Assembly: GCA_002633005.1 (NCBI GenBank)
Contig: NMRA01000295.1
Location: 147,124-211,123 of the forward strand
Reading direction: 5' to 3'
From: Phoronis australis
Taxonomy: Eukaryota; Animalia; Phoronida
Length of the DNA stretch: 64,000 nt
In this document: positions 2,270-34,567 of the stretch, in pieces
Position numbering within the stretch: the stretch's first letter is position 1
Layout of the letters: every line of letters starts with the position of its first letter
Position numbers and translations under genes: made by a program
The notes under the pieces: generated by a model
The model's database searches: none
What the model saw: only the letters and a program-made list of their open reading frames with translations
What the model was told of the DNA's origin: nothing

Positions 2270-3809
2270 TCTCATTTACAGCTGCTGTTGTCATTTAGGA
2301 AATATGTTATTTGGTAAACGTTTGAAGTATGCTTATTAGTTTTGATATAGATATAGATATAGATAGGTAATAGATAATTGCTGTGTTCTCTGTGATAATT
2401 ACCCCGTTTGCTGGCATTTTAGGGAAGGGGAAGAAGGCCATTTATTTGTTACTCAGCTGGGAAAAATTATCTAAAAAATACCAAATTTCTGTCATTTCTG
2501 AACTTTATGAAATTAAGCCATGGAGACAGAGATAGGTGTGTATTTTACACTCGCAAAACACGACTCCTTACATTGTCGCAATAATCTCTGACTAGATCAT
2601 TCCCTTCATTGATTATTCTTTTGTTTTGAAAAATTCTCTTGCACAAAGTTCCCTGATAGAAATTATGTTGTGTGGAAATCAACGAACAAAATAAAAGTAC
2701 CTCATCTTGAAAAGTGCTTGTATGGCAATTGGCGCTTAAGTCAGAGAAAATACGGTAACTGTTATACTTTATATTTAATCAATATGTCATTGAATGTTGT
2801 CACTGTTGCACATTAGGGGACATGAATGACTGTCTTTCATGCAGTGGCCATTTAGATTGGCATACAGCATGTCTTGGTTTCTGTTCAGGAAGTATCTTCT
2901 CTGATCATTCATGGCCTTACTCTCCACTGAACATGTTTCTCTCATAAAATTCCATGGTGGCATATATGGTGTTGATGTTGACAAGATTTCTGCTGTTCAG
3001 ACAGCTTTCACCATCTAATGTTTTAACAATACTAATTTTTTCTTTCTTCTAATATCCAAGGTTCACAAGCTGCCAGGTATATTGTGTTTCTTGTTTCCAT
3101 TTCCTGTTGGCTTGCTTTCAAGTGCACTTGATAAATATTTACTACAACACCACTTGTGTTTCTAAGATGTCACTTACCATTTCCTGTTTTTTAATGCTGT
3201 ATTTGGATAACTACTAACACAAGTACAATTACTCTTGTTATCACTTGCTCACCATTTGTGGTAGGTGTGAACTAAGTAGCTTGTATTTATGTATGTGCAT
3301 AAGAACTTGAGAAGTGATCCTTTTTAGCTTGGCAAAGAAGGTTAGCTGTTTAAAATAGTCATGTTCCAGGTATAGCCTCGACATGTTAAAATTAAAATTA
3401 ATTTTGTTTTTGTCGCTAGATGGCGATGCCATCTATGACTTACATGCAAACTGGATTGAGATCTTAAGAAGTGGAATTTTTCTTGGTGGGGTTTAAATTA
3501 TTATCTATCACCAAGCTGCCAATAACCACTCACAATGTTAAATGATTTACGTACAAAATCTGTCTTTTTAACTGTTGCAGATTGAAAGAAATTACATTTT
3601 GCTGTGTTCAACCCTGTCTGTCTTGGCCACCAAATTTCAAATTGGGTCATTCAGAAGTTGCTTTTGTGCTCGCATAACAATAAGAAGTTCCATGTTAAAT
3701 GTTTCCTATTAAATCTTGTTGTTGTTATTGTGAAGTAGCAATAAAGATATGAAATTTGGACCATGGCAAGTCATCCGGTTATGTTGACATTGTGTTGAAA
3801 ATTATTTAA

Positions 3810-4328
3810 GGCCCTTTCACACAAATGTCGATGCGTCAATGTTTTGAGAAATTGCGGTCAGTGTGAACGGTTTACTTCAGTCCTGGATCGAAATTAACGG
3901 CGCCAGTCAACTGCGCAGTACTAAAACAGGTGAATTTAACAGCGGAGCGTCAACGCTGCGGTACAGTATGAACGGTCAATTTCGGTCCCATTGAAGTTTA
4001 TTGCCAGGGGACACTGTTATTGCCAACAATTAAAGAGCGGTGTCATCGCTAGTAGTTGCTTATATTTTGCTCGAATAATTACCAATAGAATAAGACATAA
4101 GTTTTATGTCAATTAGCACATGTATATGTTCCCTAATTGTCACTTGTCACATCAAAAGAATATCTTGGTGTACCCACGATGCATCAGTGCTTCCTTGCCA
4201 TTACTTTCAAAGTAAAGACAACAGCGTCACCAACCGTTTACTTTGATGTCCATTAACTACTATGAATGGTTCAGCTAACTTCACAGTTTATGTCAATGCT
4301 CCCAGACCAAAGTCAGTGTGAAAGGGCC
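3810..4328. mobile_element. MITE with TTAA target-site duplication
   Basis: TTAA|GGCCCTTTCACAC ... GTGTGAAAGGGCC|TTAA. Internal recurrences of a CAGT(G/A)TGAACGG motif at ~3859 and ~3964. Confidence 0.85.
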
Positions 4329-5105
4329 TTAAGAATTGTTAAAAAATCAATATAGATTTACTGATCGAGATTTGATGGTCTGAAATGTGGTGATTTCGAT
4401 GATTGATTTTATCAAATTTTAACTACATGTTCTTTATCTTTTGCTTTAATAACATGATTGTTATCCGCATACTTAAAGGTTGCAGAGGTATCTCCTGATT
4501 TGTGGTTTCTAACATAAGGGTATGTGAGCTATTTTGTTATGTGAACTCCTAACTACTTCATCCCAGACTGTGCTGTAGCTAATGTGACCCTAATGGTGAC
4601 ATTACACCTGTCATAAATACTTAATTGGCAGGTTTTATTTAATTAATGTACCCTTGGTTGTTCTGCAGGTACTCACAGCAGTGGTCGTGTTTTCCAGCTT
4701 TGTAATGAGGTGGGTGAACCTGTCTATGTTAAGTGTTGTAACATGATTTAACCTGCTCAAATTGATGTCATTGTCTTTTTATTACCTGTATTTTATTAAC
4801 TTTAGACTCCCAGGCTTACTTTTAAGTGAAACAGGTAATGATGTGATACTAATTGTGATGCAAATAGTCTGCACATCTGTTTGGGTTGGGTTAGAGACCC
4901 TAACTTTTGGGCTCCAGCAGGCTCTTTTGAGGCACTCAGTGCAAATACTGCCAGTCAACTGATAACCTTGGGTTGACATTTGACTTTAGTTTTAGCAGTA
5001 TCAGCAAATTAACAGTCAAACCACTCTGGTACTTTTATTTTTATACAGGTTGTCTTTGGGTCATGTCTGCAGTACTGTTTTGTTGGTTTATACTTTTACT
5101 TTAAT

Positions 5106-5228
5106 TTGTGATTGGTTTTATTGGCGTGTAAACGACTATGAATATTGAATTGTCAAATAGTGAATGTTTGTGATGGGTTTGATTGGCGTGTAAACGACTA
5201 TGAATATTGAATTGTCAAGTACTGAATG
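5106..5228. repeat. ~61-bp tandem duplication just upstream of the terminal-exon acceptor
   Basis: Two copies of tttgtgat..attggcgtgtaaacgactatgaatattgaattgtcaa..tgaatg. Confidence 0.8.
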
Positions 5229-5247
5229 CCATTTTTTTTTGCTTCAG

Positions 5248-5619
5248 TCCCAACAGTCTAAAACTAGTCCATCAAAGCCCCCAAGAAAAAAGTCTGTCCC
5301 AGTTCCACCGTCTATGCCTCCCCCACCACCACCAGCTGCATTCTGTGATTCTGACAATGGCACCTATATCGTGAAAGATGATCCAGCGGGTAAAAATGAG
5401 CAAGAGCCACAGTCAGTGAGTAGACATGATCTACCACCACAGCCTAGACGACCAGCCCCGACTCTGCCACCTCCTGCTGTGCCAGCACCAAAAGAAGAGC
5501 ATGAGGAAATGTCTTATGTTATTCACAGTGTAACGAAAGATAGCAAGAAAGAGAAGAAAAAAGGGTTGTTTGGACTGTTCAAGAAAAAGAAAGGCAAAGA
5601 AAAGAAAAGTGGGACGTAA
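5248..5619 (+). CDS. Terminal exon of the same unknown gene: proline-rich (PxxP) with a polybasic C-terminus
   Basis: Acceptor tttttttttgcttcag|5248. Encodes SQQSKTSPSKPPRKK..PPPPP..KKEKKKGLFGLFKKKKGKEKKSGT*. Confidence 0.75.
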   Translation, partial: SQQSKTSPSKPPRKKSVPVPPSMPPPPPPAAFCDSDNGTYIVKDDPAGKNEQEPQSVSRHDLPPQPRRPAPTLPPPAVPAPKEEHEEMSYVIHSVTKDSKKEKKKGLFGLFKKKKGKEKKSGT

Positions 5620-8238: not shown

Positions 8239-8364
8239 TTATTTATCTTTGACAATGGCAAGCAGTAATTTTGAGTAGCTGGCAGTGAACTCCTTGTCTA
8301 GCCTTTCTTCCAAAGAACTGCCATAGGTCTCCAAGTACTTTTGTTTTATATTGTATAGATCAAC
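8239..8364 (-). CDS. Annexin fusion gene, last exon (end of repeat 8)
   Basis: VDLYNIKQKYLETYGSSLEERLDKEFTASYSKLLLAIVKDK*; CAG acceptor. Confidence 0.9.
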   Translation of the reverse strand, partial: VDLYNIKQKYLETYGSSLEERLDKEFTASYSKLLLAIVKDK

Positions 8365-11300
8365 CTGAAAACAAAGTCGTTACTTAACCTTAAATCATTT
8401 CTCAACTCTGGAGAAATCCAAGTGGCATGATATTAAATTAAGACAGGTAAGTTTTGCATGAGAAAATATAGAGACACACGAAGTCTCACTAACTTCTGTT
8501 ATATGACCTCAGAAAAGCTTGGTACAAATCACTTAGTGAAGAATTTTCAAAATTGAAACCCTCAAGTAAACATGTTATTAAGTTGTAAACCCATAACTCG
8601 TTCTACAATTCATAATTTCAGCACAGAGCAGCAATGCCAAACAAAATGGCCAATGGATATTTTTCCAAAAAGAGGTAGTAAATTACCTGAAATTTGGCAT
8701 AGCCAATGTTTGTACAACCCAAGTAGTTAACAATCTTACCTCTGACCGTGACACAATTAGGCGTATTAGTGGTTTATCATCAGTCTCAACTGTGTCCAAG
8801 GCATTGTGGATTCTCTCCGTGTAGAAACTGATCGGGTCTTTCAGACTTTTCACTGAAGAAATCACATTTATATTGTTGCCAGAATATAAGTTTGCTACAG
8901 GTTAATGAGAAAACAAACAAAATTTCATTAAAAGCTTAAGATGTTTGGAGCTATAGCTCAGTGCCACTTTGATACCCCAAAATGGATGACTTTAAAGTGG
9001 AGGTAGGGAAGATGATGCAATCAGTGGACTTCATAATTCAGTCCACGGTGCCATCTGCAATTAGGAATGTTAACTAAATGAATAGTTCTATCCTATAACG
9101 CGAAACCAACACAATCATGGTTTTCAAACAAGAGCAATGCAGAGCATTGAAATGCGCCCATGAATGCAGCACGAATGGGGTGCCTTTAGGGTTAATTATT
9201 TGCATCATAAAAATGGCCACTAGATGGCGCAAAAATGTCCAACACACCCAAAAACGAGAAGTGCCATCATTTCTCTGATAGAATTCTATTTACCAAATTT
9301 CATAAAATTCTGTCAAGGAACTTCAGGGAAACAACGGAAAACAGAAAAAAATGAAATTGTCAGCAAATTCCTTGGCTCCGACTAAAATTCCTGGTTGTCT
9401 GTCGTTAGCTTCATTTAGATACACTTCCTAAATTTCATAAACAAAACCACCACTAAGAGGTGCCACAGTAGTTGAAGTCATCGCCAACTGTCCTCTTCAC
9501 ACTGAGAACATGTAACTAATTTTCAAAATCATCCTATAATGGATTGGTTGATAGAAGATGAATTCAAAAAAAGCAAAAATGGCCACCAAAAATGGGAGGA
9601 TAGCGTCATCTCACCAATAGATTCTTTTTTTCCAAATTTTATGAAAATCCGTTAAGGACCTTTGAAGATACAGAGGTAAATGTAAAAAATTAAAATTGCT
9701 ACTATTATAGGGGGCACTCCAGTAGTCAGATCCATCCTAAAGTTGTGGTCATCCGTTGTCAACATCACATAAATACACTTGCTAAATTTAGTAAAGATCC
9801 TGCAAATGGCTTAGGAGATACTGCTATGGGTGCAAAAAAACTGCCATTAGGAGGCGCCACAGCAGTCAAAGTCATAAAATCATCAGGAGCAGTCTTCTTC
9901 ATAGTAAGACCATACATGCCCATTTTCACGATCATCTTTAGAGCTGTTGGGTTGACGGGTGGACGCCAACAAACATACTCTAAAACAGTAAAAATGGCCA
10001 CTAGGTGGCACATACTACGTCGAATCCATCCAAAAACAAGACGATAGCGTCATCTCACTAATAGATGCCTACATGCCAAATTTTGTGAAAATACATTGAG
10101 TACCTTTGAAGATACAGAGGTAAAAGTAAAAAACTAAAATTGCCACTATGGAGCACAATGGTAGTCGAATCCCTCCTAAAGTTCGCTCATGCCGTCCCAT
10201 CCATGAAAGGAACACATGTTCAAAATTTCATGAACATTACGTCAAACGGTTTTGGAGACAGCAGCGGAGAGACGGACGGACGGAGATGACGCCATAATGC
10301 ATCCACATATGAATATGTGGGCGCATAATAAAATGAGTCATGCCACATTTAAAATTGAAATCTGTAACACGCTCATCAGAATCATGCATTCTGCCAACAA
10401 GGAAAATAACCATTTCAGAAGTGTCAGTTTGATTCCCATAAAGCAGTTATCATTGTCACACAAGTTATGGAATCCCAACAAAAATTGTCCAAACAAGGTG
10501 GAGCTGAGTTTTACTGTTTTGCAAGACTACTTGTCAGTAGACTCATTAACTGCAGACTCATTTGCATTTGACAGGCTAAAATAATGCCAGGTGTCATTTT
10601 TACAGTTACCTAAAGTTATGAGTGGATCCTCCAAGTCATCCAGACCAGAATTGTGTATTCCCTGTATGATTGTATGACCAGACAATCTCTGGTACTCTTC
10701 AAATATAGCATTCACTTGCCAACAGTTCCTCTTTGTGAGTATTTCTTGTAATAGTTTGTTGTTGGCCACTGTTAAAGAGCTCCCATCCTGAAGACAAGCA
10801 GAGTTGCACACAAAATACATAAAACACATTCAACAATTATATTGTGTATTTATTGCATTGCAGCAAAATAAAGAAGTACTTCCATTGAAAAAATGGCATC
10901 AATAACAGACAAATGTTTAAGATGAAATCTCAAAAACGCTAGTACAGTTTTTTTTTTAAATTGTGCTTCGCCGCATTTAGGTGGCAAAAACAATACTCAA
11001 ATTAGGCCTTGTATGGGCACAAAATTGGTCCTGTCACCAACAAGAACACTGAAACCATCATTGAATCAAGAAAGTTCATCAGAGTGACTTGTGTTGGACA
11101 ACTCTAAACTTACAAATTTATCAATGAATGCACAAGTGCATGTGTTGTTAGAGTTGGTAATATGAAATAGAATTATTATCACAGTAAGGAATATGAGACC
11201 AATTTTCTGAAAGCAGAAAGCCCTGTTCGATTTTTGTATTCAGCCAGCTAAACGGAGAGAAGGGGAGCTTTAAATTATTGTTTTCATAATACATACCACT

Positions 11301-14300
11301 TTAGAGTTTTCATAAAAATCATAGTTTCAATAGTCCCAAATGCAAAAGTGGGACATTTTAAAAATGATTCCTAACAGATTTTGGAGACAAGTGTATAAGG
11401 CATAGAATCTGAAGGTTTCATATGGATACTAATCCACCATTTCTGAGATATGACATAACAAATTTGGCCTAACTGAGGAGATTTCGATATAAGGGTACAA
11501 ATTCTGCTCACTCAACTCAATTTCAGACTTGAACATTTCAGACAATTATAACCACAGCCTCTCACTTGTTTATCCATGGGTGTATATATGTCAAGTTTTA
11601 GGACAGACTGATATGCATGCTGATCTCTTAAAATGGACAGCATACAATGAAAATAGTGTTGTAAAGAGACAGCTTGAACCAGTTTACACGGGACCATAGT
11701 TCAATGATTTACCAGTTCTTCAAAATCAGGACCACCAAAAGGGACTATTGACAGTTCATTTATTTTTATAAATGGGATATTTTTAATGAAAAGAATGTTT
11801 TGTATATTCCGGAAAAACTCAATTCTTAGTTATTTAATAGTTAGTGATATCAACCTACTGTAGATAGTGTTATGCATTTCAATTATGCCTAACCTTTTGG
11901 TAACAGGAAAGACCAAGAATGTTTGGGGTTATTTAAAAATTCCCAGAATGTATATGTAATATTTAAAGAATTTCTATGCCATTGCAGTTATTTTAGAATA
12001 GTGATCATTACTATGGCTAAGAACTGGAACATTCTGTCACCCAACTCCTGTTTGCTATGCACTACTCACATTGTACAATTTCTTCGCCTCCTCCTTAGCT
12101 TCTGCCAAGTGAACATAATCCGACTGGTCGCGACCCCCTTTGGTTAACTCTAGTAGTAATTCTGTAAGAAACCCACTGGAATCGCCTTTCAAATCTTCAG
12201 CAAGGTTTTTGCCATACGCTGAAACAAATTTGTAACTATTTGCTTGACATGATATCAGATAAGCTATAATTTTGATCAATGGAGACTGGCAGGTTTTTGG
12301 GCCACAAGAGAGAGCTATGAGCTTTACAATGATTTAAAAGTTTTGGTTAATACCAAAAATTTCCAAAAATAGGCCCACCCAAACATAACCCATGGGCGTA
12401 TTTCAGTAACTCTTTGTATGTGTTGAAAATCTGATGGATTGTTCTGAAATACACAATCATGTACTATTTTTATGTAAAATTTTGTGAAAACGTTTTATTT
12501 TGGCATCGCGGTTGCACTCAAATGACTGTCATTTAACAAGACATTGGGTGACTTTGTTGGTAATAGACCTTATTAGTATAATATGAAGGAAAGTCTTAAT
12601 GACACTATTTCCAAAAATACACCCCCTTTTCCGAAAATATGCCCAGATGTATATTCGGTTTCATTCGACATTTTTGAAAGGTTGTTTCTGAATATCCATC
12701 CATGGGCCAATTTTCGGAAATTCACGGAAAAAATTCGCTTACTACACAAATCAGAATTGTTTATCTTATGACTGCCAAAAACAACATTATAACAGTAAAA
12801 TCTCACCAATTTGGGACATGATATGGCCGACGGCTGAAATATTTTCTCATTTTTCACATACATTGCACAAAATTAATGCTTTACAATGTTCAAGTTGTGT
12901 ATATTTGATGCCATCTTCTGGGCACTCCCGACAATGTAAAAAGACATTTAAAAACAATAATATGGCAATTTCGGAAATTAGTTTTTACCAAAATATGTGA
13001 GATTTTACCCTACTTACCTTTTAAATATTGCTGATTAACCAGTTTCAACTCGTTTGCAGACCTAGTCGCTAATATAGCAATAAGTGTGGTGTCTCTTGTG
13101 CCAAGACTAACTATGGCCTCATGCAAGCAGTATGCATCATATCTAGACGGTGTCATCATCAGTGCTATAATGACTTCTTCAAAATCTCCACCCAGCTCCG
13201 ACTCAAGCACTGTTTTAAGGTCCTGAACAAGAAATATAATCATCATACATTGAAAAAAACACTGATGCCAGACCAATGCAGAGCATTGATATGCACTCCT
13301 TGTGATCATCACAAATAATTAAGGGTTGTTCATTTTCTCAAATATTCGACAGTAGTCAGATCCATTCAAAAGTCAACATCAGTTGTGCTCTTCTTATGAT
13401 AGACTTATAGGTCAAATTTCATGAAAATCTAGGAATTTGGTGGGTATTAATTCAAATGCAATTATGACAATTTGCCAGTAAGGGGTATCCAAGTAGTCAA
13501 ATCTATCCACATACTGACACTAGACATGCTTTCCTCAATAGGAACACAATGCTAAACTTGATGAAGACCCATCAAAGAGTGCTAGAGTAGATCTGTCTGA
13601 AAACTAATGTTGATCATACATTTTTCAATAGCACATCTGCCAACTTTTATGATGGTTCCTGAAGAAGGAGGCAGATGTCAACTGAGACACGAAAATAATG
13701 AAAGTGATCCTTGGAAGAGCAAAAAAGTCAAACTCATATCACTATAATATTAATTTGCCAAATTTCATAAAACTTCCGTCAAGAAATTGGAAGATAGAGA
13801 AGAGGAAAACGTAATGAATTAGCAATTGGATCCATTTCAAGTAGCTGCCCTGGTGAAACTCCTCACCAGTCATTACCTATGTGACTTTCATGAACCTAGC
13901 TGATATTTAACTTTGCACCATGTCTATGTATGCACGGCCAAAGAAAACTAAAGCTCACCTTCTTATATTTTTCCATGTATTTTCTTTTAATCTGCTGCCT
14001 TTGTTCATTATTCCTGCCAGATAGAATATCAATGAGGGCTTGTCCATCTATATGCCATTCTTTCAATGCTTGCTCGATATCCTGCAAGTCTTTATCAACA
14101 TTCATCTCTGACGCTGGCTTGACAGTTCCCATTGCTTTAACTCTAGGCTTGGAGACTGTTGTCTTCTTAGAAGAATCAGCTCCTTGTTTGTCCATTTGAC
14201 GAGACTGACCTCCATTAGCATCGTTAGTACTATGTCCCCAAGAATCATATTTTCCATTCTTTGCTCCATTTTTATCACTCACACCTGATTTGCCACTTGT

Positions 14301-17300
14301 GTTTCCACGTTTACCAGTGGCAACCACCTTTCCTTTTGATGGCACAACACCCTTGGTGTCTGTATGCTCAGATTTTTTTGTTTTGGTTTCAGCTTTTTTA
14401 CTAGTCTTTTTCTTAGGGCTGGTGGTGTGAACAGCAGACACTTTAGGCTTCTTCATAACTGGGTTCTGAAATGCATACAAAGCGACACTAAGTAATATAT
14501 TTCCTAATTATGTATCTGATCATCACGGATCAATAAACCCGCTGACTTTCATACTGATTCAAAAAAGTTTATGAGCATCATTATGATTTAAAAATATTGT
14601 ACATTTTGAAAAACTCTATTTTTAACGTAAAAATGTTTGAAGAGTATCATTCGAGCATGCTTGATATAACAGACTGTTTGGAAACATTAACAGATTGAAA
14701 ATTTTCCAATTATTTAAGACAACTATGTTTTGTACAATTACCACCACAAAGTAGCTTGTTTAACAAATCTTTTTGTCACCGTTTTTGTGTAAGCTTAAAT
14801 ATAATTCTCTGTACGGAAATGAGACAATTTTTAAGAATCGTCTTACCTTTTTATCTATTGGGGTGCCAGAGGCAAGAATGGACAGAGTATTGCCCAGCTC
14901 TCCTTTGAACTTGCTTTTAATATCTGTCGGCAGATCACGGCTGTATTTTTTCTTGTAGGATTTACGAACATCCTGTAAATCTACTTCAAACCTTGACAAC
15001 AGTAACTGGATAAACTTTGTTGGATTTTTGGGGTCCATCGTGTTATGTAGCTTCTCAGCATGAAACAGCAAAGGAGTTGAAAGGCATTTTTCTGTAATAC
15101 ACCATATTTCATAAACTTCAATTAATTGTTTACATGGACAGAAATCTCAAGTGAACTTTTTATAATCGATGTAGTAAATGGGTGTATTTTCAAGGGCACT
15201 TCTAAACTTTGAGCTGTATATAAAAAACAGCTTAAAATTTTCAATAATTGAGGAATTGTTGAACACTTAATGAAAACAAGCTTAAAGTAGATGTAAACCT
15301 GCTTTCTAAAAATCAACTTTGGATTCAGACCATTGCCATTATGAAACATGTCTCAAATTTTTCATTTTCCAAATTGAATCTGATTTCAAACACTTCGCAA
15401 GAACAGACAGTTTGTTATCACTTGAAATCAAGCTCCACAAGTTGGTTTGTCAATGCGTTTTTATTTCATGCTCCAAGAATGGTTGTTAACAAATATTAAA
15501 GTGAAGTGACAGGTCTTTGGAAATACACACATCCCTTGTCATCTGAGTAAATAAGGAAACGGACATCCATTGTCATCTGATAAGGAACTAACTTCGTGTT
15601 CTAAAAGTTTGCTTCGTGGATGGAACATATTTATAATAGCTTTAAATTTAGTGTTATAACCAGACATGAATACAACTTTCTTTTACAGATCTGTTGACCA
15701 TAAGTAGTTTCACTACATTTGCTACCAATCTATACTGTCATATCAACACAGTTGCATTGATATTGAGAGTCAAAAATAACCCTTTAGACATAAATATTGA
15801 AATGGCATTCCGATTTCCAGGTTCTTAAAACTGTATTCCATTTTCCGTCTCTGTGACACTAGGGTAGCCCCAATAATTTGCAAAGTTAACAATTTCTCCT
15901 AGAACAGTAATTTGAATGCATAATCCCAATTTTTTTCTATCTAAGACTAGTTTCTATGACATAGAGTAGGATTCCACCCACTCACTTCCATTATAGTGAT
16001 TATACAAGTATAGGACAAGAAGCTGACATCATTCCCAGATGAGAATTAGGTAGACCCTAGAATTCACTGAAGAAAACAAAAGTGAAGGACAAACTTGATT
16101 TTTTTTCATGACTATCAGTTAGAGAAGACGATTGGAACGCCACACAAACTTTAACCCATTGTGTTGTCTGCGGATCATGTCACAGGACAAATCAAGAGAT
16201 TAATTTTACAGAATGCGTTGCTATAGCCAATTGCCACTTTGGTCTAAAAAGTTTGGTTTTCAGTAACACAACTCTCAAACCATAGGAGTGTTTAACCTTG
16301 GATAAACGTGTGTGATCTTCATATATGGAACAAATGCAAAAAAGTATTCTTAGATCAAAGGATTTGACCAAGTTTATGGGCAGGGTGTAACGAATAGGGT
16401 GTGGAACATGATAGTGCATCAAATTTCTATTGACATGCCTTAGGACTAATTACCCATTCGTTTAACACCATTCGCAAACTCGGGTGAGCATTCGTTAAAG
16501 ACCACATTCCCAGCTCCAATTCCTCCATTGTACTGTTTGAATGACTCCAGAAACCCCTTCATGTGGTCCAAATTGTGTTCACCAAGCACTTTGAGAAAGA
16601 CCCCACTGTCACTTGTCCAGCGACCATCTCCAGATTCATACAAGGTGTGAGCCTCCTTCTGGACTACTGCTTCATCAACTTCAGATGAGTCTGAGTGGTG
16701 CTCCTTTAAATAACATTATTTTGTACACTATTATATTTAGTATATCATTTAAACAAATGGCGTTTCAACAAAGACATTATGCAAAATTAAAATTGTAAAA
16801 GCATCTTATATGAATAATTCATAAATGAATGCTACAAACAAAAAGCCCTTTGCACACACATTAATAATTATGCAATAGTCTCATGTTTTAGGATATCAGA
16901 AATGATGGAATTTCAGTAAAAAACAGTCTGCATATCAAAAACGTTCTAAATCAGTCTTATAATTCGGTATGTTTTATAAATGAATGGAGCAAACAGAACG
17001 CATTTTACACAACCATTAATATGAAATAGTCTCGTGTTTCAACCGAAGACATTCTGCACATGAAAAATATTGTAAATCAGTCTTATATGATTGAATGGTC
17101 CAAGCGGAAAACACTGCAATTTAATAACTATGAAACAGTCTCGTGTTTCAATTAATTAGTCGTATTTCAACAGAAGACATTCTGCACATGAAAACATACA
17201 GTAAGCCAGTGTTATAATATAGTATAAATGAATGGTATAGACAGAAGACATTCTGTGCATTTTCTCACCTTAGCAAGAGCTGTAAGGAGAAACAGGCTCT

Positions 17301-20300
17301 CTTCACCTTCAAACTGCAGTTTCAGATCATCTTCAATACTGTTAGTGTACTCTAAAATAAACATTCTCTAATTAGTTGTGTTGCCTCGTTTAAGCATGAA
17401 TCAAGTGACAGGACACTATTTGCAGTGTAGTAGGCATGTCCAAGTCCTGAGAGTGGCTACGTTGTACAAAAACACTTGAATACGGGAAAACTGAGATATA
17501 GACATGATGACTTGGCAGCAGATTCATTGTGTTCTCCCGTCTACCACTCTCTTTCTCACAGTAGTACTAATTCATCAATTTCTGATAGGTATTTAATGAA
17601 ATTAACTAGTAGACGTTAGTGCCTTAAAAAGGAAAAGGCAAAACAGGTCTGCAATATGTTCCATAGTTTCATACTCTTTGCCTTTACAAGTCAAGGTGAA
17701 ATCATACATTTCCAGGCAAAGACCAATTGCACTCTATTGCCTGTTTTCATTTTTAAAGGTCTTAACAATGTAACTGTTGTGAATGGCCACACGTTTTCAC
17801 AATAGTGTCTTTTGATAGCTAGCGATATGGCACAAAATTCTAAGTAACCACTGAGACCAGATACATCCATTACCTGTGGGGAAATGGGTGTTCTACTTAT
17901 ATCCTCCATAGTGTGTTACAGATAATCATGCTCATTCTAAAAATGTAACGTGATCAAAACATCATGTAAATAGGCTAGAGACTAGTGTAACTAGGCTAGT
18001 TAGTTTAAATAGGCCAGAGGCTAGTTTAAATACACCAGAGGTTACTGTAAATAGGCCAGATGCTAGTGTAAGTAGGCCAGAGGCTAGTGTAAATAGGCCA
18101 GAGAATAGTGTAACTAGGCTAGTTAGTTTAAATAGGCCAGAGGCTAGTGTAAATACACCAGAGATTACTGTAAATAGCCAGAGGCTAGCGTAAATAGGCC
18201 AGAGGCCAGGGTAAATAGGCCAGAGGCCAGGGTAAATAGGCCAGAAGTTGGTGTAAATAGGCCAGAGGCTGGTGTAACTAGGCCAGAGGCTAGTGTAAAT
18301 AGGTCAGAGGCTAGTGTAAATAGGCCAGAGGCTAGTGTAAATAGGCCAGAGGCTAATGTAAATAGGCCAGAGGCTAGTGTAAATAGGCCAGAGGCTAGTG
18401 TAAATAGGCCAGAGGCTAGTGTAAATAGGCCAGAGGCTGGTGTATAAAGGCCAGCAGCTAGTGTAACTAGAACAGAGGCTAGTGTAACTAGGCCAGCAGC
18501 TAGTGTAATTAGGCTAGATGCTAGTGTAACTAAGCTAGAGGCTAGTGTAAATAGGCCAGAGGCTAATGTAAATAGGTCAGAGGCTAGTATAAATAGGACA
18601 AAGGCTAGTGTAGCTAGGCTAGAGGCTAGTGTAGCTAGGCTAGAGGCTAGTGTAGCTAGGCTAGAGGCTAGTGTAAATAGAAATGGTGTTACTGCTTCAC
18701 TATGGTTTTAGAAAGTCATTATTAAGGCAAAAAATTTCATTAAGTTAAGACCCAATATATATGTTAACTTCATATTGATTTTGTTAATTTTGTCATCTTT
18801 TTCATAAAAAGTAGGCTGAAACAAATTGATGCCTTACCATTTTCAAGTTTTGCATCAAATATTTTGAAAATTTGTGTGAATTCACAATCTTAGGTCTTAA
18901 AAAATGAAAAGATTGTAGTTCTGGCAATCTTGTATTGGTCAAATTTTGGTGAAATGTGGTAAATAAGCACAGCTGCACCCATTGAACACCAAATCTCTTG
19001 AAGAACTCACTTTTCCTGTATGTATCCCTGATGTTTGACATTGATGCTTGACTTCTTGTACAAACAAACTCGACAATACCAATAATCTGAAACAATAAAT
19101 GTTATTTTCAGTGTCAGGTTGAAAAGCAAAATGTCACCACTTACTGAAATATCCTTAAAGTTACACAAGTATTATGTTACATAACTATCATGTACACATG
19201 CACATCTCTACACTCATGCGCTTACATCCGAAATATTAAAACTGAATTTCTAAATTTACATATCATGACAAATATTTCATATACAGCACATGCACTTCAG
19301 TTACACTTGAAAGCACAAGGTAATATTTCATGTCTACCTACACGTGCATGTCCTGAAATGCTTTTTTGAGCTTTGCATTTACTGTAGGTTTTACGATACA
19401 ATAAGTGTCTGTAATGACCAGCCTTGTGTGCCACTGAACCACAGTGTATCATTTTGCAATGCCATGCTGTCCATTAAATTTGTAATTAAAAACAAAATAC
19501 AAGGTTCACCAACTAAGGTCTATTTTGCACACTTTTTTCACCAGGTTGCAAAAAAATAAGAATTCAAAAGGAATGAACATTATGCTAAAAGTCTGATGTT
19601 AGTTAAAGTTATAGAATATAAATGTTGACTTGGTTAAAATTGTGTTTTTGTCAATAATTCGTGATTTCTGCATTAAGTTTTCACAAACACCTAATAAAGT
19701 GGACCACAACAATTATGAAAGGCCAATACTATAGTTTGAAAATATTAATCACTTACATCTTTTTGAACAATTGCAGTCTTCAACGTGATTGCATCTTCCG
19801 TTTTTCCATTTACAAAGAGAGCACCAATCAAACAATCATACTCGTTGCCTAAGGCAGTACGCAACTCCTCTTCTAAGTCAAGGTCATACAATAATCTGAA
19901 CTTGTCCTTGACCTGTTTTCGGTGGCTCTTTGACCTCTTTATTAATGTCCTATTGAGACTATCATTAGATGGAACTGAAAAACATAATAACATTTGTCAA
20001 TTAAATCTTCATACTTTTGGCTTGCTGTCCAAACAAAACAAAATCAAGATTAGACCACATAGTCTTGAAAATTCTTTAGATATAAATTTCTGCTTCCTCA
20101 AAAAACATTAAAGACATTTCCATGACAAAAATCGTCAGAAACTCACAAGCATGACCAGCCCCTTCAAAGTTCACCCATTAATTCAATTGTATGTCATCTT
20201 GCAATTCCAACTGAATCAAAGTGTCTTAAAACAATATTTTTCACATTTATTATCAGCTTACCTAAATTTTTCACTCCTTGAAACAGTAACTTGGCATCTT

Positions 20301-23300
20301 GATCCACCAAAATTTCTTTTTCAGACTAAAGAAAAAGTTATGGAAATATTACTTTAAAACAGAATATTTAAAAAAAATCCAGTGAAGATGTGTCCTAGCT
20401 CTGCAAGGAATGGCGTCAAGTGATGCTGGTGACAATCTGGGGACTACCAGAGTTAAGCATGAAATTTGAGATGGCTGAGGTTAAACTTAGCGGCAACCAA
20501 GGTGTTGACATTTGACAAAGTTGAATTTGCACTTACTGTCCCCTCCGGTAATTTTTACCTTCCTGCAAGCTTGCGGTACAAAGCTCATTTTGCAAAAAAG
20601 TTTACATAAGCCTGTCCATGATAACATACAGAAATTGCACAAGGGTTCAATTTTCACTAAATAATCTCACATTAGGGGAAATTTTTCTCGAAGACTTCCC
20701 ACAGTTTTGGGACAAAATATTCCAGAGAAATGTAGAAGGATCCAAGTATCAGTTATGATAACAAGACGGCCTGCCACCTGTTGGTGAAAACTCACGCTAG
20801 GCATATCTCCAGCAATACATCCATACACGACAATGGATTCAGTATCTAGAGTTACTATATGTACGGAATGTCGCAAAAACGCTCACAAAATTGCTGTGAA
20901 ATATGTACCAGGATATGGTGTTACTGAGATCTAATGATGTTTTATACATTCCAGAAATGCCAAAGTTGTTTTCCACTGAGTAAAAGTTCGAAAAATTGCG
21001 ATGAGTTTTGGAACGAAACACTTGTGCAGTTTCACGGTAGATATGGAGGATTTTCCACAAAGCTGATGTAGCAAGGTAGAGCGCAACCCAATCAAATTTT
21101 AATTCTAATTCAAAAAGAACAGTTTCCATGACTTCTGACTTCATTTAATTCAAGCATTAGACGCAGTCCTCATTTGACTGGGAAGTGCTAGTTTAGTGCA
21201 TAAGTCAGCTGTGGAGAGTCTGAACAAATTCTTTTTTGTTCATTTAGAATCAACTGTGACCTTTTCTAAATTTTGTGCCTTACAATTCAAATTTTGTGAT
21301 TCTTGAAACACAAAAACCATTATTAGTGCTCAATACAACCATTTTCTGATCTTCACATTTCAGTATATTTTGACACACCTTATACATATCCTTCTGCTAA
21401 AGAAAATGTTTATGAAATTAACTATTAGGTACACATTTTTAATTAGTAAGTTAAGACCTAAATTTCATTAATATGTATTGTCTGTCAATGTTAGATAGAA
21501 ACAATGTTAGTAAAATGTTAGTCACCTTAGGTTTAGTAGTTTTACTAATCTTTGGTAACCCAACTACCTTATCACTTGCGTCTATGTCAGTTGAAGTTGC
21601 AGATGAAGGCTGGAAATTCAAGAAAACATGGTATACACACTAACTGGTATGAATGGAATTGAGGGAAATTTACGCATTCAGCAAACACCCTTTCTTTCAA
21701 ACTTTTACAGTTAACAGCCTATAAAAGTTATTCGAATTTCAGTCATAGGGGAACTAATAAACGAGCATCTATTATGGTAAAGCACCTACCTCAGATGGTA
21801 AAACACCTACCTCAGATGGCGACGGTTCCTCGCTATTTGTACTCAGTCTGGATTTGCCAAACCTCTGGCTCTAAAAAGCATAACAACTCATCTACATATC
21901 TAGATTTACTGCCCAACGTAAAAGCAGATTTAACATTCAAGAGGCATTATGAATTTAGTTTTGCAAGGTGAAAGTAGCAAGTGTAAATTTCACTTGTCGT
22001 TATTACCCAAGCGTTAGGGCAAAAATGCATAACAGCAATTGGCTCTGTTCCACAGACCCTTGAGTTAATCTATTCCTCGTATCCATCCCTAGCACCAAAA
22101 CTAAATGTAATAAAATATGCTTGTTATATGGTTATGAGTCATTGAGAAATTCGTCTGTCTGTGCTCTGTTCTGTGTTTTGGGGAAAATCGAAGGGGCAGG
22201 ACTGCAACACAAAACAAAACCAGTTGCTTTGGAAACTTTGTTTTTATTCAGTTAAGGCCACAGAAGAGGCAATTGTCACTGCGTTAGCAAGTCACTGTGT
22301 CCCTAAAACTACCTTAGATGAAATTGTGTACCCTTTGAAACAAAAAGGAAATTCACTAAAGTGAGTCAGCAACTTCCTAAAACCACTTCGGCTGTAGTAA
22401 CATCATACCTTTCTTGGTCTATTTACAAAAAAGCTAAAGTTTGGAATAAATAAACCAAGAGATTTTAGACATGAGTGAGGTACAGGTTTCAAATGAGTCA
22501 GGCAGAGACCAGAACTAGTTGTGACTATTTTCTTTGGCCTAATTAATTGTTTTGGGCACTCTTATTGAGTGTCTTTCTGATAACTTACTATAAAATCATT
22601 CACATATCTAAAATGTCATGAAGGCAGTAACCACAGTGTAAAAGGGTAGACTATGTTGATTAATACCCAAAAATGGTAGTAAAATCGCCTCATTTTTTTA
22701 GCCATACAAAATTGAACTTCGTGCTCATTTAAACTACTACAAGCACACACGCACAGTACATAAACACTATCTACAGCTGCAGAATTTTAAGCCAATCGCA
22801 CACAAAATGTAAATGATACATACTTCAAGAAATTACTAAATCAGAAACTATAGTTAGTTTTTAGCAAGAATGTTCAACACCAGAAACTCAGTATTTTGAG
22901 GCTTTCAAAGTGTTGCACAGTACAATTCAAAACTTACGCTACATTTCTGGAGTCAAACCAGCATTGTCGTGTACACTATTTGTCTACAGTCATCATCCCA
23001 TACATAATTTTTAAGATTTTGTTTCATCTTTCAAGGCCCCCATGGTCTCCCCTAGATGCCAGCCAATGCCTTCCTGGATTCAACAGAACAATATAACCTG
23101 AAGTATACTTGAAAGTTTTTTAATACTATGTGCACACACGTGACGACAACGCAGTTTTCAAACAAATAGATATGCTTAAGCCATGATTCTTTTTACACTA
23201 CCAATCTTAATTTTTGTCAATAGATATACTAGGTGTACCAATACCTCTGGAAATGTCCTTGACCTTTGTGTGGAAGCCATAGCAGCATTGTAAGCTATTC

Positions 23301-26300
23301 CCCAGTCTTTTGTACTTTCACTCCACATGCCCTTGTAATATGCCTTCTTTTTATAGTCCTCTTCCTGTACACAAAGGGAAATGTGGGTATTAGGAACCAC
23401 ACACTAGTCAGAAAGACCATTGGTCTGAAGGTCATAGTCATTGGTCAGAAAGGTGTTACAAACAGGAAGGAGTGCAAAAAAGTTTCAGTCATACAGTAGT
23501 TTTAAGAATAAGTTGGCGAAATATCTTTTTATTGAAAATTTCAAAGCAAAATTTGCAGGCTAATTTTCTTACAATATACACATGTTTGGCCTGTTTCCCC
23601 AAGTTTGTCAAAAAGTCAATGACACCAGGCAAATTCCATTGAGCCTGTTCAACTTAATCCGAACTCCTGTACAACAAGGTATGGGGAACATTATGAGAAC
23701 ATTAATTCAACCTACACACAAAAGGTGAAGAAGAGTATATTTCTGGCCACTGTTAACCACCTGGTTGGTTTAAATTGTCACCTGTGTGTACCTGAGCTAA
23801 ACAACCACAAGGTACATTACATTAGTAGTAAAATTGTGATGAGCACCTACCCAAGCAGTCACACTGTATTTTGGGCGGACTTTCTGAAGATTCTTGGCAA
23901 TAACTGCATTTTGTTCGGCTATCTGCTCAAGTTCTTTTAACCGATGAGAGGAGTTTAGACTGGAATAAAGTCATTAATGACGTTTTACCAACACTAAGAT
24001 TTGTCAACACCAAAGTATGGTAGCATAATTTATACACCAGATAACAACAATAATGCCATCCTTTAGCATGTCCTGTTAGCTTGCTGGGACGAATAATGCG
24101 CAAAAAATCTATAAAACACCAATTGAAAATGAATTAAGGCTCTAATGAAGTTACCCAGTTGAAAGGTTTGATGCCATTTGACTTTGTAACATAAGGAATT
24201 TTCAGAGGTTTCTGAATTTAACGAGGTTTTCACTCTGAAAATTATATGCCTGAAAAATATAATGTAGAAAAGAATTTGTTGTTTTATATTAGTGATTCGC
24301 AATCCTTATAATTTTAAAAATGGCAACCATGACACTTTTTAGTGTACTTTACACAATCAGTGCTTCCTTTATTAGCTGCTTACATCTGTTACCTTTGGGT
24401 CCCATGTTACCTTTGGGTCCCATGTTACCTTTGGGTCCCATGTTACCTTTGGGTCCCATGTTACCTTTGGGTCCCATGTTACCTTTGGGTCCCATGTTAC
24501 CTTTGGGTCCCATGTTACCTTTGGGTCCTATGTTACCTTAGGGTTTCATGTTACCTCTGGTTCTCATGTTTTAAAATGGAATTATATCCTATTCTCACCT
24601 CCTTGATTCGTAACCGTTCCAATTGTCGACTTTTCCACGTCTTTTTAAGATAGATGACATCTTTTCTAAAAGCACAGTGTTACCATAGTCTATAAGTGCT
24701 TGCTTCTCCTCCTCTAACTGTAATGTACGGAGATTCACATATATAACAAAAGTTAAATTACTTGACTAAGAGTCACCAATTGCAAAGATAGAATAAAATA
24801 ATAAAATGTACAAAATTGCACAATAAGTCACAATATCGGAATAAAAACCTGCCATAATATTAAAAATGGCATAGCGAGAGTTCCATAAAATCCTTGATAA
24901 AAGCAATGTTTTCTACAGAAAGCCTGTTGTAAGGTAAACAATTATTAAAAAACATAATATGAAAAAGACATTTCATAGTGTGTAACTCACTCCACATGGG
25001 AGTGAGCGGAGACCATCCCAGGTAATCAGTGCTCACCTGCAGTTTCTTCAGTCTCAGCATGAGGTGTGGGAATTTTGGAGGAGATGCGGAGTCTATGGAA
25101 CTTTTCATAGAATTCATCTTGAATTGAAAACAAATTATGTTAAAGGTGGAATGGCTCACCTTGGTGATTAAACATGCATGCAAAGTAGTGCAACAGCTCA
25201 TTGTGGTCATAAACTATCTTAAGCCTCATCTTATCATCAGCTTAAATTGATGAATGGCAGTAATGATTTTATTTTGCTGTTGTTAATAGCAACAACGGTG
25301 GCAATTGAATATAACTAATCATCCTTTGTGTCATATAAGCCTACTTAAATTTAATAGGATTTCCAATAGCAAGCTGCACGCGCCGACACTGAGAATGCCA
25401 ATTTATATGTCCAAGGTCCCGGTTAGATAGGTAGTTGCCAGAGCAATCTGAACACACAAGCCATTTAACTTGGAGAGGCGGAGAAATTAACGTAACCGTG
25501 AAATGATCCACGACTATGTGTGAAAGAGGTGCGGGGTTATGATGTCAGGCTGTGGCTATTGGCATTATATGACTCATATAGAACAAATCTTTTTCTTTAT
25601 ATATTTCTACAACTTTTCAGACTAAATACGAGCAGAATCATTTAAATTACCATTTCAGCATTTTTCCAGACAGTTAGCCAAATTCGTTAAGTCAGCATAT
25701 GACTTTGGTAGGTCTACTGTTATAGGTCCTACTTGTGACTGATTTGTCAATTGTTATTTGCGTCATTCTTAAGTGACAAATAAGCCCGCTGAGTACAGAT
25801 TGTTATTACAATTCACATATTGTTGATACTAATGATCACTGAAGCACTACCACCACTTTAGTTCTTGTGCCGGGTGTTGTGTGAGAGAGTAACATAAAGT
25901 GACCTGGGCCAAACAGGCTATAAATACCTCGTCTGCCTCTCACTTTGATGGTCGACACTGATTAGATGGCTTTATTGACTTGCTAACAGTCAATTATAAG
26001 TCAAATAGCTGTGGACAGTACTCTCAGAGTCTACTCAGTCTTGAGTAGACTCTTAATCAATATAATACACTTTAAGAATACCCGAGTATTGATTGTATAT
26101 ACTTGGGTTCTAAAATGGAGAATTGTAGTATTTGGTGCTGCATCATCAATCCTCGAATGATATGATGGATATCGTCGTAACATGCTGTAATTGTTTACAT
26201 CATCAAATTAATTATCAGTGATGTCGTTCTTAGTTCCTATGCTAAGACTAGTTGTCATGGTAATGAATTAAAAAACGAGAAACGGTCATAAAATTAATGC

Positions 26301-27553
26301 TACATTTCGCCCTGTTTAGCTGACTAAAACAAAAATTGAAATAGGCCTTTTATTCCTATAAACTCGATGTGATTAAATTTCGTTATCTAGCCAGGATTGT
26401 CCTTTCGTTACCAGCTCATCGGGCAACGCCGACATGCGTTATTTTCCGTATTCGCAAGTCAAGGGTTGATCAACAGCAAAGAAATTCCGAAGCAATTTAT
26501 TGGGGCGCTAATGATTTCGATATTCTTGTTTATAACGGAAACAGAATCCTATCGTAGTAAAGACAAAGATATTACAGTTACACCTGAATATTATCGGACC
26601 AAATCATGAGAGACGTAATTAGATTTTCGTTTTATAGTCAAATCAACAGCGCGAAATGCAGCCTAAACAAACAACGCTTGGGAAGGAATAATTGAATAGC
26701 ACGAGTCGGCTCTTCCATGACTACTTCATGAAACGTCATTTGATTTGGCCCAGACTGTGAAGATTCACCGTTTATCTTTGAGCTACACCATATCACCTGA
26801 TTGTCAAAGAATAGATACCTTTGGTAAACAGACGGGGACTGTCGGGAAGATAGCATGATAAGAGAATTACTGTTTAATACTACCCCACAGTGTTGAAGTA
26901 TTTCTGTAGATATCGTAACACAGGATGGAATGAATGTGTCACTCTTTACAGAGATAAAATAAAAATGCTATTTTGAAATAGCTACGTTGTGCATGACTGT
27001 TTTTGTATATCTAAGCATGTTAAATAGCCGTTTTGTGATACTTCCAAAGCTATCGAATTCTCCATTACGTTAGGGATTGGTTTTAAAACATGCCTCGAAC
27101 ATTTCCCTGAAAATAGCAGAAAATGGTTTTTGTCTTCAAATCCCCATTCAAGGCACAAATAGGAAAAACAAAATGTCATCGATTTTGAGATAGTTAACTA
27201 ACTGAAGTTAGATCACTTCATTTCAATCACGTGGTACTCTCAGTCTCAATCGTTTTGGAAGTAGAACACTGCATTTGTTGGTACAATTTTGGACAAAAAT
27301 GATTACCCTATTGATCTTTTTACTTTTCTAACATTGGTGTAAATACCCAGAATTTCTGAAAAGATTGTCTGGTGTTAGCTATGCCATAAACGTTGAAAAA
27401 CTGTTACCATCTACTTTAATTGGTGGTACCTATGATGAGAACCTGATGTGATTTCACCAAGTGGTAATGAAAAATTTGAGACCTGTTTCATTGGAGTTTT
27501 CTTATTTCATGTTGAGACAGGTATAACAGGAAAAAATGGTCACAAAAATACCA

Positions 27554-27589
<36 letters not shown>

Positions 27590-27826
27590 TAAGAATATAA
27601 ATAAGTAAATATAAAGTAATAGGCTACGTAGGGAATAAAATACCAATTATCACGCTCGTGACTGAAACACATTCCTTGCAGAAGTAACAAATTTGAACAT
27701 AAAATTCATAATAACCACAAATTTTACTCAAGATGTGTATACCTTCTCTTGATGTGCCTTATAGTGTCGCTCTCTCCACCTCCTCTCTAACAGCTTACTA
27801 CACGACGGGAAGCTCATCTTGGGCAT
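8239..27826 (-). CDS. CFAP97D-like (KIAA1430/Hemingway) domain plus double (8-repeat) annexin protein, 18 exons, ~922 aa
   Basis: Exons 27826-27743, 25117-25037, 24717-24599, 23959-23851, 23364-23245, 21609-21568, 20325-20262, 19974-19757, 19086-19011, 17351-17269, 16703-16454, 15091-14847, 14465-13959, 13222-13018, 12218-12070, 10787-10610, 8852-8740, 8364-8239. All are GT-AG and phase-compatible, totalling 2769 nt with no internal stop. Confidence 0.75.
8740..8852 (-). CDS. Annexin fusion gene exon (repeat 8)
   Basis: KSLKDPISFYTERIHNALDTVETDDKPLIRLIVSRSE|gtaag, the classic annexin LIRxIVSRSE motif. Confidence 0.92.
9126..10333 (-). mobile_element. Helentron-associated non-autonomous element (HINE/DINE-1-like) with internal degenerate tandem repeats
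   Basis: On -, it begins in a T-run with an ATGCGCCCACATA..TATGTGGATGCAT inverted repeat and a (GTCC)n microsatellite, continues through ~140-bp degenerate repeats, and ends ATGGGCGCAT + short hairpin + CTTGTTT. Confidence 0.7.
10610..10787 (-). CDS. Annexin fusion gene exon (repeat 7)
   Basis: DGSSLTVANNKLLQEILTKRNCWQVNAIFEEYQRLSGHTIIQGIHNSGLDDLEDPLITL. Confidence 0.88.
12070..12218 (-). CDS. Annexin fusion gene exon (repeats 6-7)
   Basis: YGKNLAEDLKGDSSGFLTELLLELTKGGRDQSDYVHLAEAKEEAKKLYN. Confidence 0.92.
13018..13222 (-). CDS. Annexin fusion gene exon (repeats 5-6)
   Basis: DLKTVLESELGGDFEEVIIALMMTPSRYDAYCLHEAIVSLGTRDTTLIAILATRSANELKLVNQQYLK. Confidence 0.93.
13268..13870 (-). mobile_element. 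Degenerate copy of the same HINE-like family
   Basis: caatgcagagcattgatatgcac end motif as at ~9135, plus aaatttcatgaaaat and agtagtcagatcca blocks. Confidence 0.5.
13959..14465 (-). CDS. Annexin fusion gene exon (basic inter-core linker plus repeat 5)
   Basis: K/S/G/T-rich ~115 aa, then GTVKPASEMNVDKDLQDIEQALK..LIDILSGRNNEQRQQIKRKY; phase 0-0. Confidence 0.9.
14847..15091 (-). CDS. Annexin fusion gene exon (repeat 4)
   Basis: KCLSTPLLFHAEKLHNTM..FIQLLLSRFEVDLQDVRKSYKKKYSRDLPTDIKSKFKGELGNTLSILA. Confidence 0.88.
16454..16703 (-). CDS. Annexin fusion gene exon (repeat 3)
   Basis: EVDEAVVQKEAHTLYESGDGRWTSDSGVFLKVL, compare annexin repeat 3 LYEAGExxWGTDE. Confidence 0.88.
17269..17351 (-). 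CDS. Annexin fusion gene exon (end of repeat 2)
   Basis: YTNSIEDDLKLQFEGEESLFLLTALAK|gtgag. Confidence 0.82.
17965..18680. repeat. 21-bp minisatellite, >30 copies
   Basis: Unit aggctagtgtaaataggccag. Confidence 0.95.
19011..19086 (-). CDS. Annexin fusion gene exon (repeat 2)
   Basis: IIGIVEFVCTRSQASMSNIRDTYRK, compare LIEILCTRS. Confidence 0.82.
19757..19974 (-). CDS. Annexin fusion gene exon (repeats 1-2)
   Basis: PSNDSLNRTLIKRSKSHRKQVKDKFRLLYDLDLEEELRTALGNEYDCLIGALF..EDAITLKTAI. Confidence 0.85.
20262..20325 (-). CDS. Annexin fusion gene exon (start of repeat 1)
   Basis: ttttctttag|SEKEILVDQDAKLLFQGVKNL|gtaag; contains no Met. Confidence 0.8.
21568..21609 (-). CDS. Putative 42-nt linker exon between the CFAP97D domain and the annexin cores
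   Basis: ttttcttgaatttccag|PSSATSTDIDASDK|gtagtt, phase 0-0, so it could be skipped without a frameshift. Confidence 0.5.
23245..23364 (-). CDS. CFAP97D-like domain exon 5
   Basis: EEDYKKKAYYKGMWSESTKDWGIAYNAAMASTQRSRTFPE|gtattg. Confidence 0.75.
23851..23959 (-). CDS. CFAP97D-like domain exon 4
   Basis: (S)LNSSHRLKELEQIAEQNAVIAKNLQKVRPKYSVTAW, matching the KIAA1430 pattern SLN..R..E...I..EN..I..R....P.YS...W. Confidence 0.85.
24387..24560. repeat. 18-bp minisatellite, ~9 copies
   Basis: Unit tgttacctttgggtccca. Confidence 0.95.
24599..24717 (-). CDS. CFAP97D-like domain exon 3
   Basis: LEEEKQALIDYGNTVLLEKMSSILKRRGKVDNWNGYESRS. Confidence 0.88.
25037..25117 (-). CDS. CFAP97D-like domain exon 2
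   Basis: MNSMKSSIDSASPPKFPHLMLRLKKLQ|gtgag, matching the family motif D..PP....HL..KLKKLQ. Confidence 0.85.
26251..26264. promoter_or_regulatory. RFX X-box-like site in intron 1 of the CFAP97D-annexin gene
   Basis: GTTGTCATGGTAAT, with forkhead-type TGTTTAC at 26192-26198. Confidence 0.4.
27555..27588. repeat. (AAT)n microsatellite
   Basis: About 11 AAT units. Confidence 0.9.
27743..27826 (-). CDS. CFAP97D-like domain first coding exon
   Basis: accATG Kozak context with an upstream in-frame TAG. MPKMSFPSCSKLLERRWRERHYKAHQEK|gtatac, compare P..NKxLxxRW....Y..HxxK. Confidence 0.8.
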
Positions 27827-34350: not shown

Positions 34351-34567
34351 GCATGATGATTCTTTGTAGCATAAGTTTAAAAGTTTATAAGTAGTAAAGT
34401 TTACAAAATCTCATTATTATAATTTAATAATAGTAAATAAGCATAGAAAATATATAGTTTGTTGTTTAAAAGGTTTATTTTCTACTTCTAACTTTTTCTT
34501 TTTGAATTAGCTTTTACTGTAGAGTTATCAATTTGCAACAAGCTCGATATCAGAAAGCAGAAGAAAA

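Follow-up and report, generated by a model that had tools for sequence, protein, structure and literature searches.

A probable CFAP97-annexin gene in Phoronis australis and its relatives among invertebrates

The 19-exon locus and its RNA reads

Analysis of a 64,000-nucleotide (nt) stretch of the Phoronis australis genome (contig NMRA01000295.1, positions 147,124 to 211,123; 'the window', in whose own coordinates all positions are given) revealed, on the minus strand from 27826 to 8239, a locus that is very likely one 19-exon gene encoding a CFAP97-annexin protein. When the exons were joined by coordinate, all introns were GT-AG with compatible phases, and a single frame of about 956 amino acids (aa) with zero internal stops was obtained, in which the CFAP97 domain is followed by a linker, a first set of four annexin repeats, a basic linker and a second set of four. 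A previous interpretation made from the letters alone, called here the sequence-only reading, had joined 18 exons into 922 aa. This stop-free frame (five CFAP97 exons, a 42-nt exon at 21609-21568 and 12 annexin exons, the eleventh starting at 8852) was reproduced, and the five peptides quoted in support of it were located on the minus strand at 27826, 25117, 24717, 23958 and 23364. The phase-0 donor of exon 5 (23245) and the phase-0 acceptor of the first annexin exon (20325), which has no Met, were both recovered in the sequence.

The CFAP97 domain is spread over exons 1 to 5. Exon 1 (27743-27826, aa 1-28), with the start ATG and the first helix of the domain, was assigned from the sequence and by tblastn of homologous N-termini; these N-termini, together with the frame, also supported exon 2 (25037-25117, aa 29-55). 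Per-exon Pfam scans of 18 stretches returned Hmw_CFAP97 on exons 2 and 3, with E values of 0.16 and 0.0036, both under the cut-off when taken alone; exon 3 (24599-24717, aa 56-95) adjoins a Hemingway/CFA97 cluster in the Atlas with a score of 0.94. Exon 4 (23851-23959, aa 95-131) and exon 5 (23245-23364), which ends the domain, are joined in RNA reads. The assignment of the N-terminus to the CFAP97D/Hemingway family was upheld at the level of the whole domain: a profile built from 15 homologous Pfam-positive N-termini gave 196.8 bits on residues 1-154 of the model, which makes them a match to PF13879 (KIAA1430). Aligned clam homologues, described below, passed the Pfam CFAP97 cut-off at 60-61 bits, and a close relative of the N-terminal domain matched five CFAP97-family chains of the PDB (E 3.4e-28 to 8.4e-14).

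Nine of the 12 annexin exons were recognised by Pfam Annexin. Exon 8 (20262-20325) is followed by exon 9 (19757-19974, repeats 1-2, E 1.8e-5), exon 10 (19011-19086, repeat 2, Pfam), exon 11 (17269-17351, repeat 2, by frame and by the loose-end consensus of reads), exon 12 (16454-16703), a degenerate repeat 3 placed by frame, clam alignment and repeat profile, and exon 13 (14847-15091, repeat 4, E 3.5e-12). Exon 14 (13959-14465), characterised by Pfam and a charge count, encodes a lysine-rich linker of 119 aa with a net charge of +20 and the start of repeat 5. Exons 15 (13018-13222, repeats 5-6, E 1.6e-13), 16 (12070-12218, repeat 6, Pfam), 17 (10610-10787, repeat 7, E 3.2e-7), 18 (8740-8852, repeat 8, by clam alignment and frame) and 19 (8239-8364, end of repeat 8 and TAA stop, by frame and Pfam) complete the gene. 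For exon 18 the acceptor at 8852 was preferred; another at 8894 is in frame too, yet adds 14 aa that homologues lack. A profile based on 480 repeats of other annexins detected in the model the eight repeats that had been expected (12.6-62.7 bits), arranged as two four-repeat PF00191 cores at residues 219-523 and 643-955, and the first linker measures about 64 aa. Intronic tandem repeats at about 17970-18700 and 24390-24540 (units of about 21 and 18 nt) yield long spurious frames.

Transcription was followed in three stranded raw-read runs carrying the same species label (X1, X2 and X3), about 18-19% of each having been read. A first mapping over 18950-24380 placed 32, 20 and 6 reads, and a finer one around exon 8 placed 10, 6 and 2 (counts derived from bin depths); every mapped read was of the expected strand, and no record of the RNA contig set X4 was placed on 18950-24380. 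Joints were observed between exons 4 and 5 (7/1/0 reads in X1/X2/X3), 5 and 6 (4/2/0), 6 and 7 (3/1/0), and 9 and 10 (5/8/1, entering at 19086), while loose read ends supported the passages from exon 3 to 4 (three reads, at the 3' end of exon 3) and from exon 10 to 11 (seven and seven). In total six of the 18 introns found support, the mapped region covering the eight from exon 3 to exon 11.

These reads modify the link that had been proposed between the two halves of the gene. Use of the donor at 23245 stood, but its partner did not: instead of continuing at 21609 or 20325, reads pass from 23245 to 21870, into an overlooked 60-nt linker exon (exon 6, 21811-21870) with read joints on both sides. 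Continuation of exon 5 as far as the stop at 23176, where CFAP97D transcripts might have ended, was rejected, since reads leave at the donor and depth is zero in the bins 22044-23135. The following exon, joined from 21811, keeps its acceptor at 21609, and its 3' end is probably 21526 instead of 21568. Both donors are in frame; 21526 is likely and 21568 possible, the former being preferred because 25 nt of depth extend beyond 21568 in one run (X1), which fits either the second donor or unspliced RNA, and because the extension carries an LPKI motif at the spacing seen in homologues. In 14 of the 16 homologues scored, an LPxI-type motif precedes the first annexin helix by 14-39 residues; in the Phoronis model the distance is 20 residues when exon 7 takes its longer form (21526-21609).

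Several observations count against a full-length fusion transcript. The joint from exon 7 to exon 8 (21526/21568 to 20325), which bridges the CFAP97 and annexin parts, was listed in neither mapping at about 18% of the runs and a listing threshold of three reads, and the joint from exon 8 to exon 9, within the mapped region, went likewise unlisted; depth at both was only 2-4 reads. Two fragments fall in the 3' third of intron 7, one from X2 at about 20560-20735, ending near the donor at 20559, and one from X1 at about 20394-20555. Moreover, X3 has no reads on exons 5-7 and two on exon 8, which fits shorter isoforms. The stretch 20559-20740 may accordingly be read by its frame as a candidate alternative first exon (10 codons from ATG 20588, phase-0 donor 20559), or as unspliced intron RNA. 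Exon 8 itself was fully covered by two reads in X1 and two in X2, all ending at its acceptor; it is therefore spliced to some upstream exon, which these reads do not name.

It appears unlikely that P. australis mainly produces separate short isoforms, either annexin-only from near 20740 or ATG 20588 or CFAP97-only ending in the same intron, with the fusion minor or absent. Besides the bridge joint and the intronic fragments, an acceptor at 20777 would bring a stop after 35 codons, and X3 covers annexin exons only, save about 36 nt on exon 4. However, the two fragments equally fit pre-mRNA, X1 covers exons 4-5 and exons 9-10 to a similar depth, splicing includes the linker exons with the LPKI motif at family spacing, no AATAAA occurs on the coding strand from 22248 to 20325, and fused homologues exist in nine phyla. 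The sequence-only reading had opposed to its own fusion an annexin transcript with a first exon of its own at ATG 20588; such a start was not established, the missing bridge joint and the fragments near 20588 being the reservations. Shorter isoforms may exist. Single-base differences between reads and window at 19023 (exon 10) and 19823 (exon 9) are likely to be alleles.

Elsewhere in the window, exons resembling an E3 ligase, presumably of UBR7 type, occupy 34523-45118 on the plus strand, about 6.7 kb from the fusion gene and in head-to-head orientation to it; Pfam recognised nothing in the two stretches that were scanned. No Pfam match was obtained either for 53-5619 (plus strand), which holds a 738-codon low-complexity frame and, from a convergent gene, a last exon rich in proline and lysine. 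Broken retroelement pol-like frames extend over about 60270-64000 (minus strand), with RT_RNaseH_2 at 62090-62488 (E 6.4e-9), and a THAP domain fragment lies at 55435-55842 (E 2e-6). A weak Herpes_UL92 match at 42683-43138 (minus strand, E 0.00095, under the cut-off) is probably due to chance.

Homologues and origin of the family

In word-based protein searches neither exon 14 (308 candidates) nor exon 3 (5 candidates) led to a homologue, and exon 15 retrieved two matches from 87 candidates, both with PF13879 and PF00191. These were RefSeq entries from clams, 1654 and 1670 aa long, with 16 annexin repeats each. Residues 5-953 of the Phoronis model align end to end with residues 12-967 of the clam protein (34% identity, E 5e-168). 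A HMMER search was then performed with the first 562 clam residues against 1.84 billion cluster representatives (50% identity), and 36 of the best 150 matches were scanned with Pfam, namely the top 33 and three that matched the N-terminus of the model; the other 114 did not match this N-terminus. Both domains exceeded the Pfam cut-offs in 19 of the 36.

Eighteen of these 19 could be named. Molluscs were represented by Mya, Mytilus, Solemya, Haliotis, Batillaria, Plakobranchus and Biomphalaria, and other animals by Lingula, Capitella, Ridgeia, Tubulanus, Strongylocentrotus, Anneissia, Holothuria, Ptychodera, Styela, Nematostella and Oscarella. The family is thus found in a sponge, a sea anemone, molluscs, a brachiopod, annelids, a nemertean, echinoderms, a hemichordate and a tunicate, and its named dual-domain members, clams included, belong to nine phyla. 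The remaining match was a single 616-aa open reading frame from a Logan contig of 4006 nt; as the gene is rich in introns, this contig seems to be an assembled transcript. No vertebrate, arthropod or nematode was among the 18 named members, but a list of the best 150 matches to a clam query does not show absence from these groups. Lingula provided the closest whole-length match among the homologues compared (38.6%). The number of annexin cores varied from one to five, with one in echinoderms, hemichordate and sponge, two in Phoronis, four in venerid clams and five in Nematostella.

Members can be consulted under XP_060594031 (Ruditapes), XP_071159420 (Mytilus), XP_013406318 (Lingula), XP_070576684 (Ptychodera), XP_039249530 (Styela), XP_048586536 (Nematostella) and XP_065827027 (Oscarella). 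Databases name them 'annexin A6-like', A7-like, A13-like or 'uncharacterized', and the sea urchin member XP_030854399 is labelled 'DNA ligase 1' at NCBI while carrying CFAP97 and annexin domains only. Many invertebrate entries under these annexin names, as well as this 'DNA ligase 1', can now be reassigned to a CFAP97-annexin family. Other unusual architectures were met in the same search: an unnamed 724-aa match (P0026) has six tandem Hmw_CFAP97 domains and no annexin, and two other long annexins, P0024 and P0034, carry 8-11 or more repeats behind an N-terminal Fn3_assoc domain, another uncommon arrangement for an annexin.

A merger of two neighbouring genes by a chance phase match and by gene predictors would also produce such a model. 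The bridge joint absent from the reads is compatible with it, as is the fact that most homologues are automated gene models. This explanation is nevertheless highly improbable: the same order was found, collinear, in 19 distinct 50%-identity clusters and in the two clams, homologues include multi-isoform RefSeq models, and reads exit exon 5 ahead of its read-through stop. The fusion itself, as first proposed, is supported by the reads leaving the 23245 donor and by the collinear fused homologues of nine phyla.

A FastTree phylogeny of 171 annexin cores was computed, with comparison annexins, no named ANXA6 among them, drawn from the same HMMER search; its 25 first cores include three proteins lacking a Pfam CFAP97 match (P0021, P0022 and P0031) and one near-duplicate pair. 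All first cores except those of Nematostella and Oscarella (23 of 25) formed one clade with one other sequence (support 100), 17 of the 23 later cores clustered with two others (support 100), and all 48 family cores lay with six others on one side of a branch (support 80). On this tree a single origin of the fusion in bilaterians appears well supported, and the same origin extending to cnidarian and sponge would be allowed. In the Oscarella protein the annexin core is closer to the canonical type and the CFAP97 domain ends differently; this protein may have arisen by a separate fusion or may reflect a merged gene model.

A putative tether between doublets and membrane

What holds doublet microtubules and membrane together along a beating cilium is poorly understood in molecular terms, and doublet-membrane bridges were seen decades ago by electron microscopy in mollusc gill cilia. 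A conserved protein in which a doublet-binding domain and membrane-binding folds occupy opposite ends would be a direct candidate for this link. We propose, with a probability of roughly 0.5, that the fusion protein acts as a doublet-to-membrane tether of cilia and flagella. Its CFAP97 domain would dock on the outer wall of ciliary doublets as CFAP97D1 does, and two flexibly linked annexin cores, together with the basic linker, would reach out and hold the ciliary or flagellar membrane. With such an outer-surface anchor the C-terminal part would face the membrane, and the linkers may be long enough to span tens of nanometres. A net positive second linker or C-terminal tail was counted in 13 of 16 family proteins.

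The structure predicted by AlphaFold for the Mytilus homologue (16 sequences) is consistent with this layout. The model has a mean predicted local distance difference test (pLDDT) score of 72.7 and a predicted template modelling (pTM) score of 0.40, and comprises four separate long helices in the CFAP97 part, a disordered linker (147-257), an annexin core, a second disordered linker (561-653) and a second annexin core. Both cores are helical, with pLDDT mostly 80-95, and Foldseek retrieved annexins with this model (target template modelling score about 0.9), the best being annexin VI (E 6e-32).

Published work places CFAP97D1 on the outer doublet surface, where it keeps doublets in place (PMC13406575, PMC11779644, PMC13066092), and its loss leads to unstable outer doublets in mouse sperm (PMC7444823) and in fly sensory cilia (PMC10425847). 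Among apical-organ genes, a Nematostella set contains three 'Annexin A' models and one KIAA1430 model (PMC4300403), and unspecified annexins are reported to mark ciliary larval cells common to oyster, flatworm and sea urchin (PMC10396302). The markers in these papers could not be tied to the fusion gene, which is to be set against the tether.

Calcium sites are a second difficulty. The canonical annexin type II Ca2+ motif consists of a GxGT loop plus a D/E cap, and strict matches to both were scored at positions taken from the annexin consensus. The Phoronis protein had no strict site among its eight repeats, one being a single residue off, with acidic caps in four of eight. Family first cores had four among 56 scored, all four in Nematostella and Oscarella, with 44 gapped loops left unscored, and later cores kept 41 of 76 versus 386 of 469 in other annexins. 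The second core of the Phoronis protein has lost more Ca2+ loops than most homologues. Judged by its residues, this protein is an atypical annexin, which keeps the repeats and, going by the Mytilus model, the fold, and has lost the canonical Ca2+ sites. Such a loss weakens the axoneme-membrane link suggested by the sequence-only reading where this is taken as simple Ca2+/phospholipid binding. In Phoronis, membrane binding would be mostly Ca2+-independent, because canonical sites have gone from the proximal core throughout the bilaterians and almost entirely from the distal core in this species; in most molluscs, where distal cores keep Ca2+ sites, the tether may be Ca2+-sensitive.

The lost loops also keep alive another explanation, in which the fusion is real and ciliary and its annexin cores sit on the doublet surface as scaffolds that bind kinases, EF-hand proteins or neighbouring complexes. 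We regard it as less likely than the tether. The loss of canonical Ca2+ loops from the first core of every bilaterian member scored, with the fold kept, and the 0/8 score of Phoronis speak for it, and CFAP97D1 sits beside TSSK6 and EFCAB3 in mouse sperm, a module that offers a precedent (PMC13066092). On the other hand, more than half of the scored sites of later cores are kept, as are first-core sites in Nematostella and Oscarella, long flexible linkers suit a role in reaching out, and a core number of one to five is as expected of avidity for a surface.

Annexins have roles in membrane traffic and repair, and the protein could act only during the building or repair of a cilium or sperm tail, bringing membrane to the growing axoneme and being absent from the mature organelle. 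Drosophila Hemingway is required for flagellum assembly (PMC3982993), and in mature sperm it showed no clear localisation (PMC10425847), so that a CFAP97 domain need not stay on doublets, which also tells against a permanent tether. Yet structures of mature doublets contain resolved domains of the CFAP97D1 type (PMC11779644, PMC13066092), and mouse Cfap97d1 is given a role in maintenance and not in biogenesis (PMC7444823), making a restriction to assembly rather unlikely.

Extended to the whole family, the tether hypothesis can be put forward only tentatively: an animal-old family, present from sponges to tunicates, might build the doublet-membrane bridges of motile cilia with one to five annexin cores, ranging from Ca2+-switchable to Ca2+-independent, and might include the unnamed 'annexin' of larval apical tufts and ciliary bands. 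The corrected annotation matters for the interpretation of annexin markers in ciliary cells, and homologues are present in tractable animals (Nematostella, sea urchin, Capitella and mussel).

Comparison with known proteins

The CFAP97-annexin pairing is very likely a real, conserved and apparently undescribed architecture of two domains that are both already known. No paper describing it was found in the literature searched, which covered few subscription papers, and a survey of novel annexin domain architectures (Fernandez et al. 2017) may list it. The claim of a novel fusion made by the sequence-only reading holds insofar as no description was found and entries are unnamed; the protein is, however, already present in automated RefSeq and UniRef models of many invertebrates.

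With CFAP97D1/CFAP97D2, CFAP97/KIAA1430 and Drosophila Hemingway (PF13879), the Phoronis protein shares an N-terminal domain of about 150 aa, predicted to form separate long helices. The members matched in the PDB are stand-alone chains of 158-231 aa, whereas the Phoronis protein adds about 800 aa and two annexin cores. Vertebrate annexin A6, with eight repeats, likewise has two four-repeat cores and was the best Foldseek match of the Mytilus model. Annexin A6 has a short linker between its cores; the Phoronis protein differs by its CFAP97 head, its long lysine-rich, disordered linker and its degenerate Ca2+ sites, and core number varies across its family. The name 'annexin A6' given to homologues is a best-match label, the likeness being in repeat number only. 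Giardia alpha-giardins are flagellar annexins and offer a likeness in their tie to flagella; they are not known to carry a CFAP97 domain. The nearest relatives are the uncharacterized RefSeq and UniRef homologues, for which no published function was found and which have the same architecture in the same order and differ in core number, the first cores of bilaterian members forming one clade with that of the Phoronis protein.

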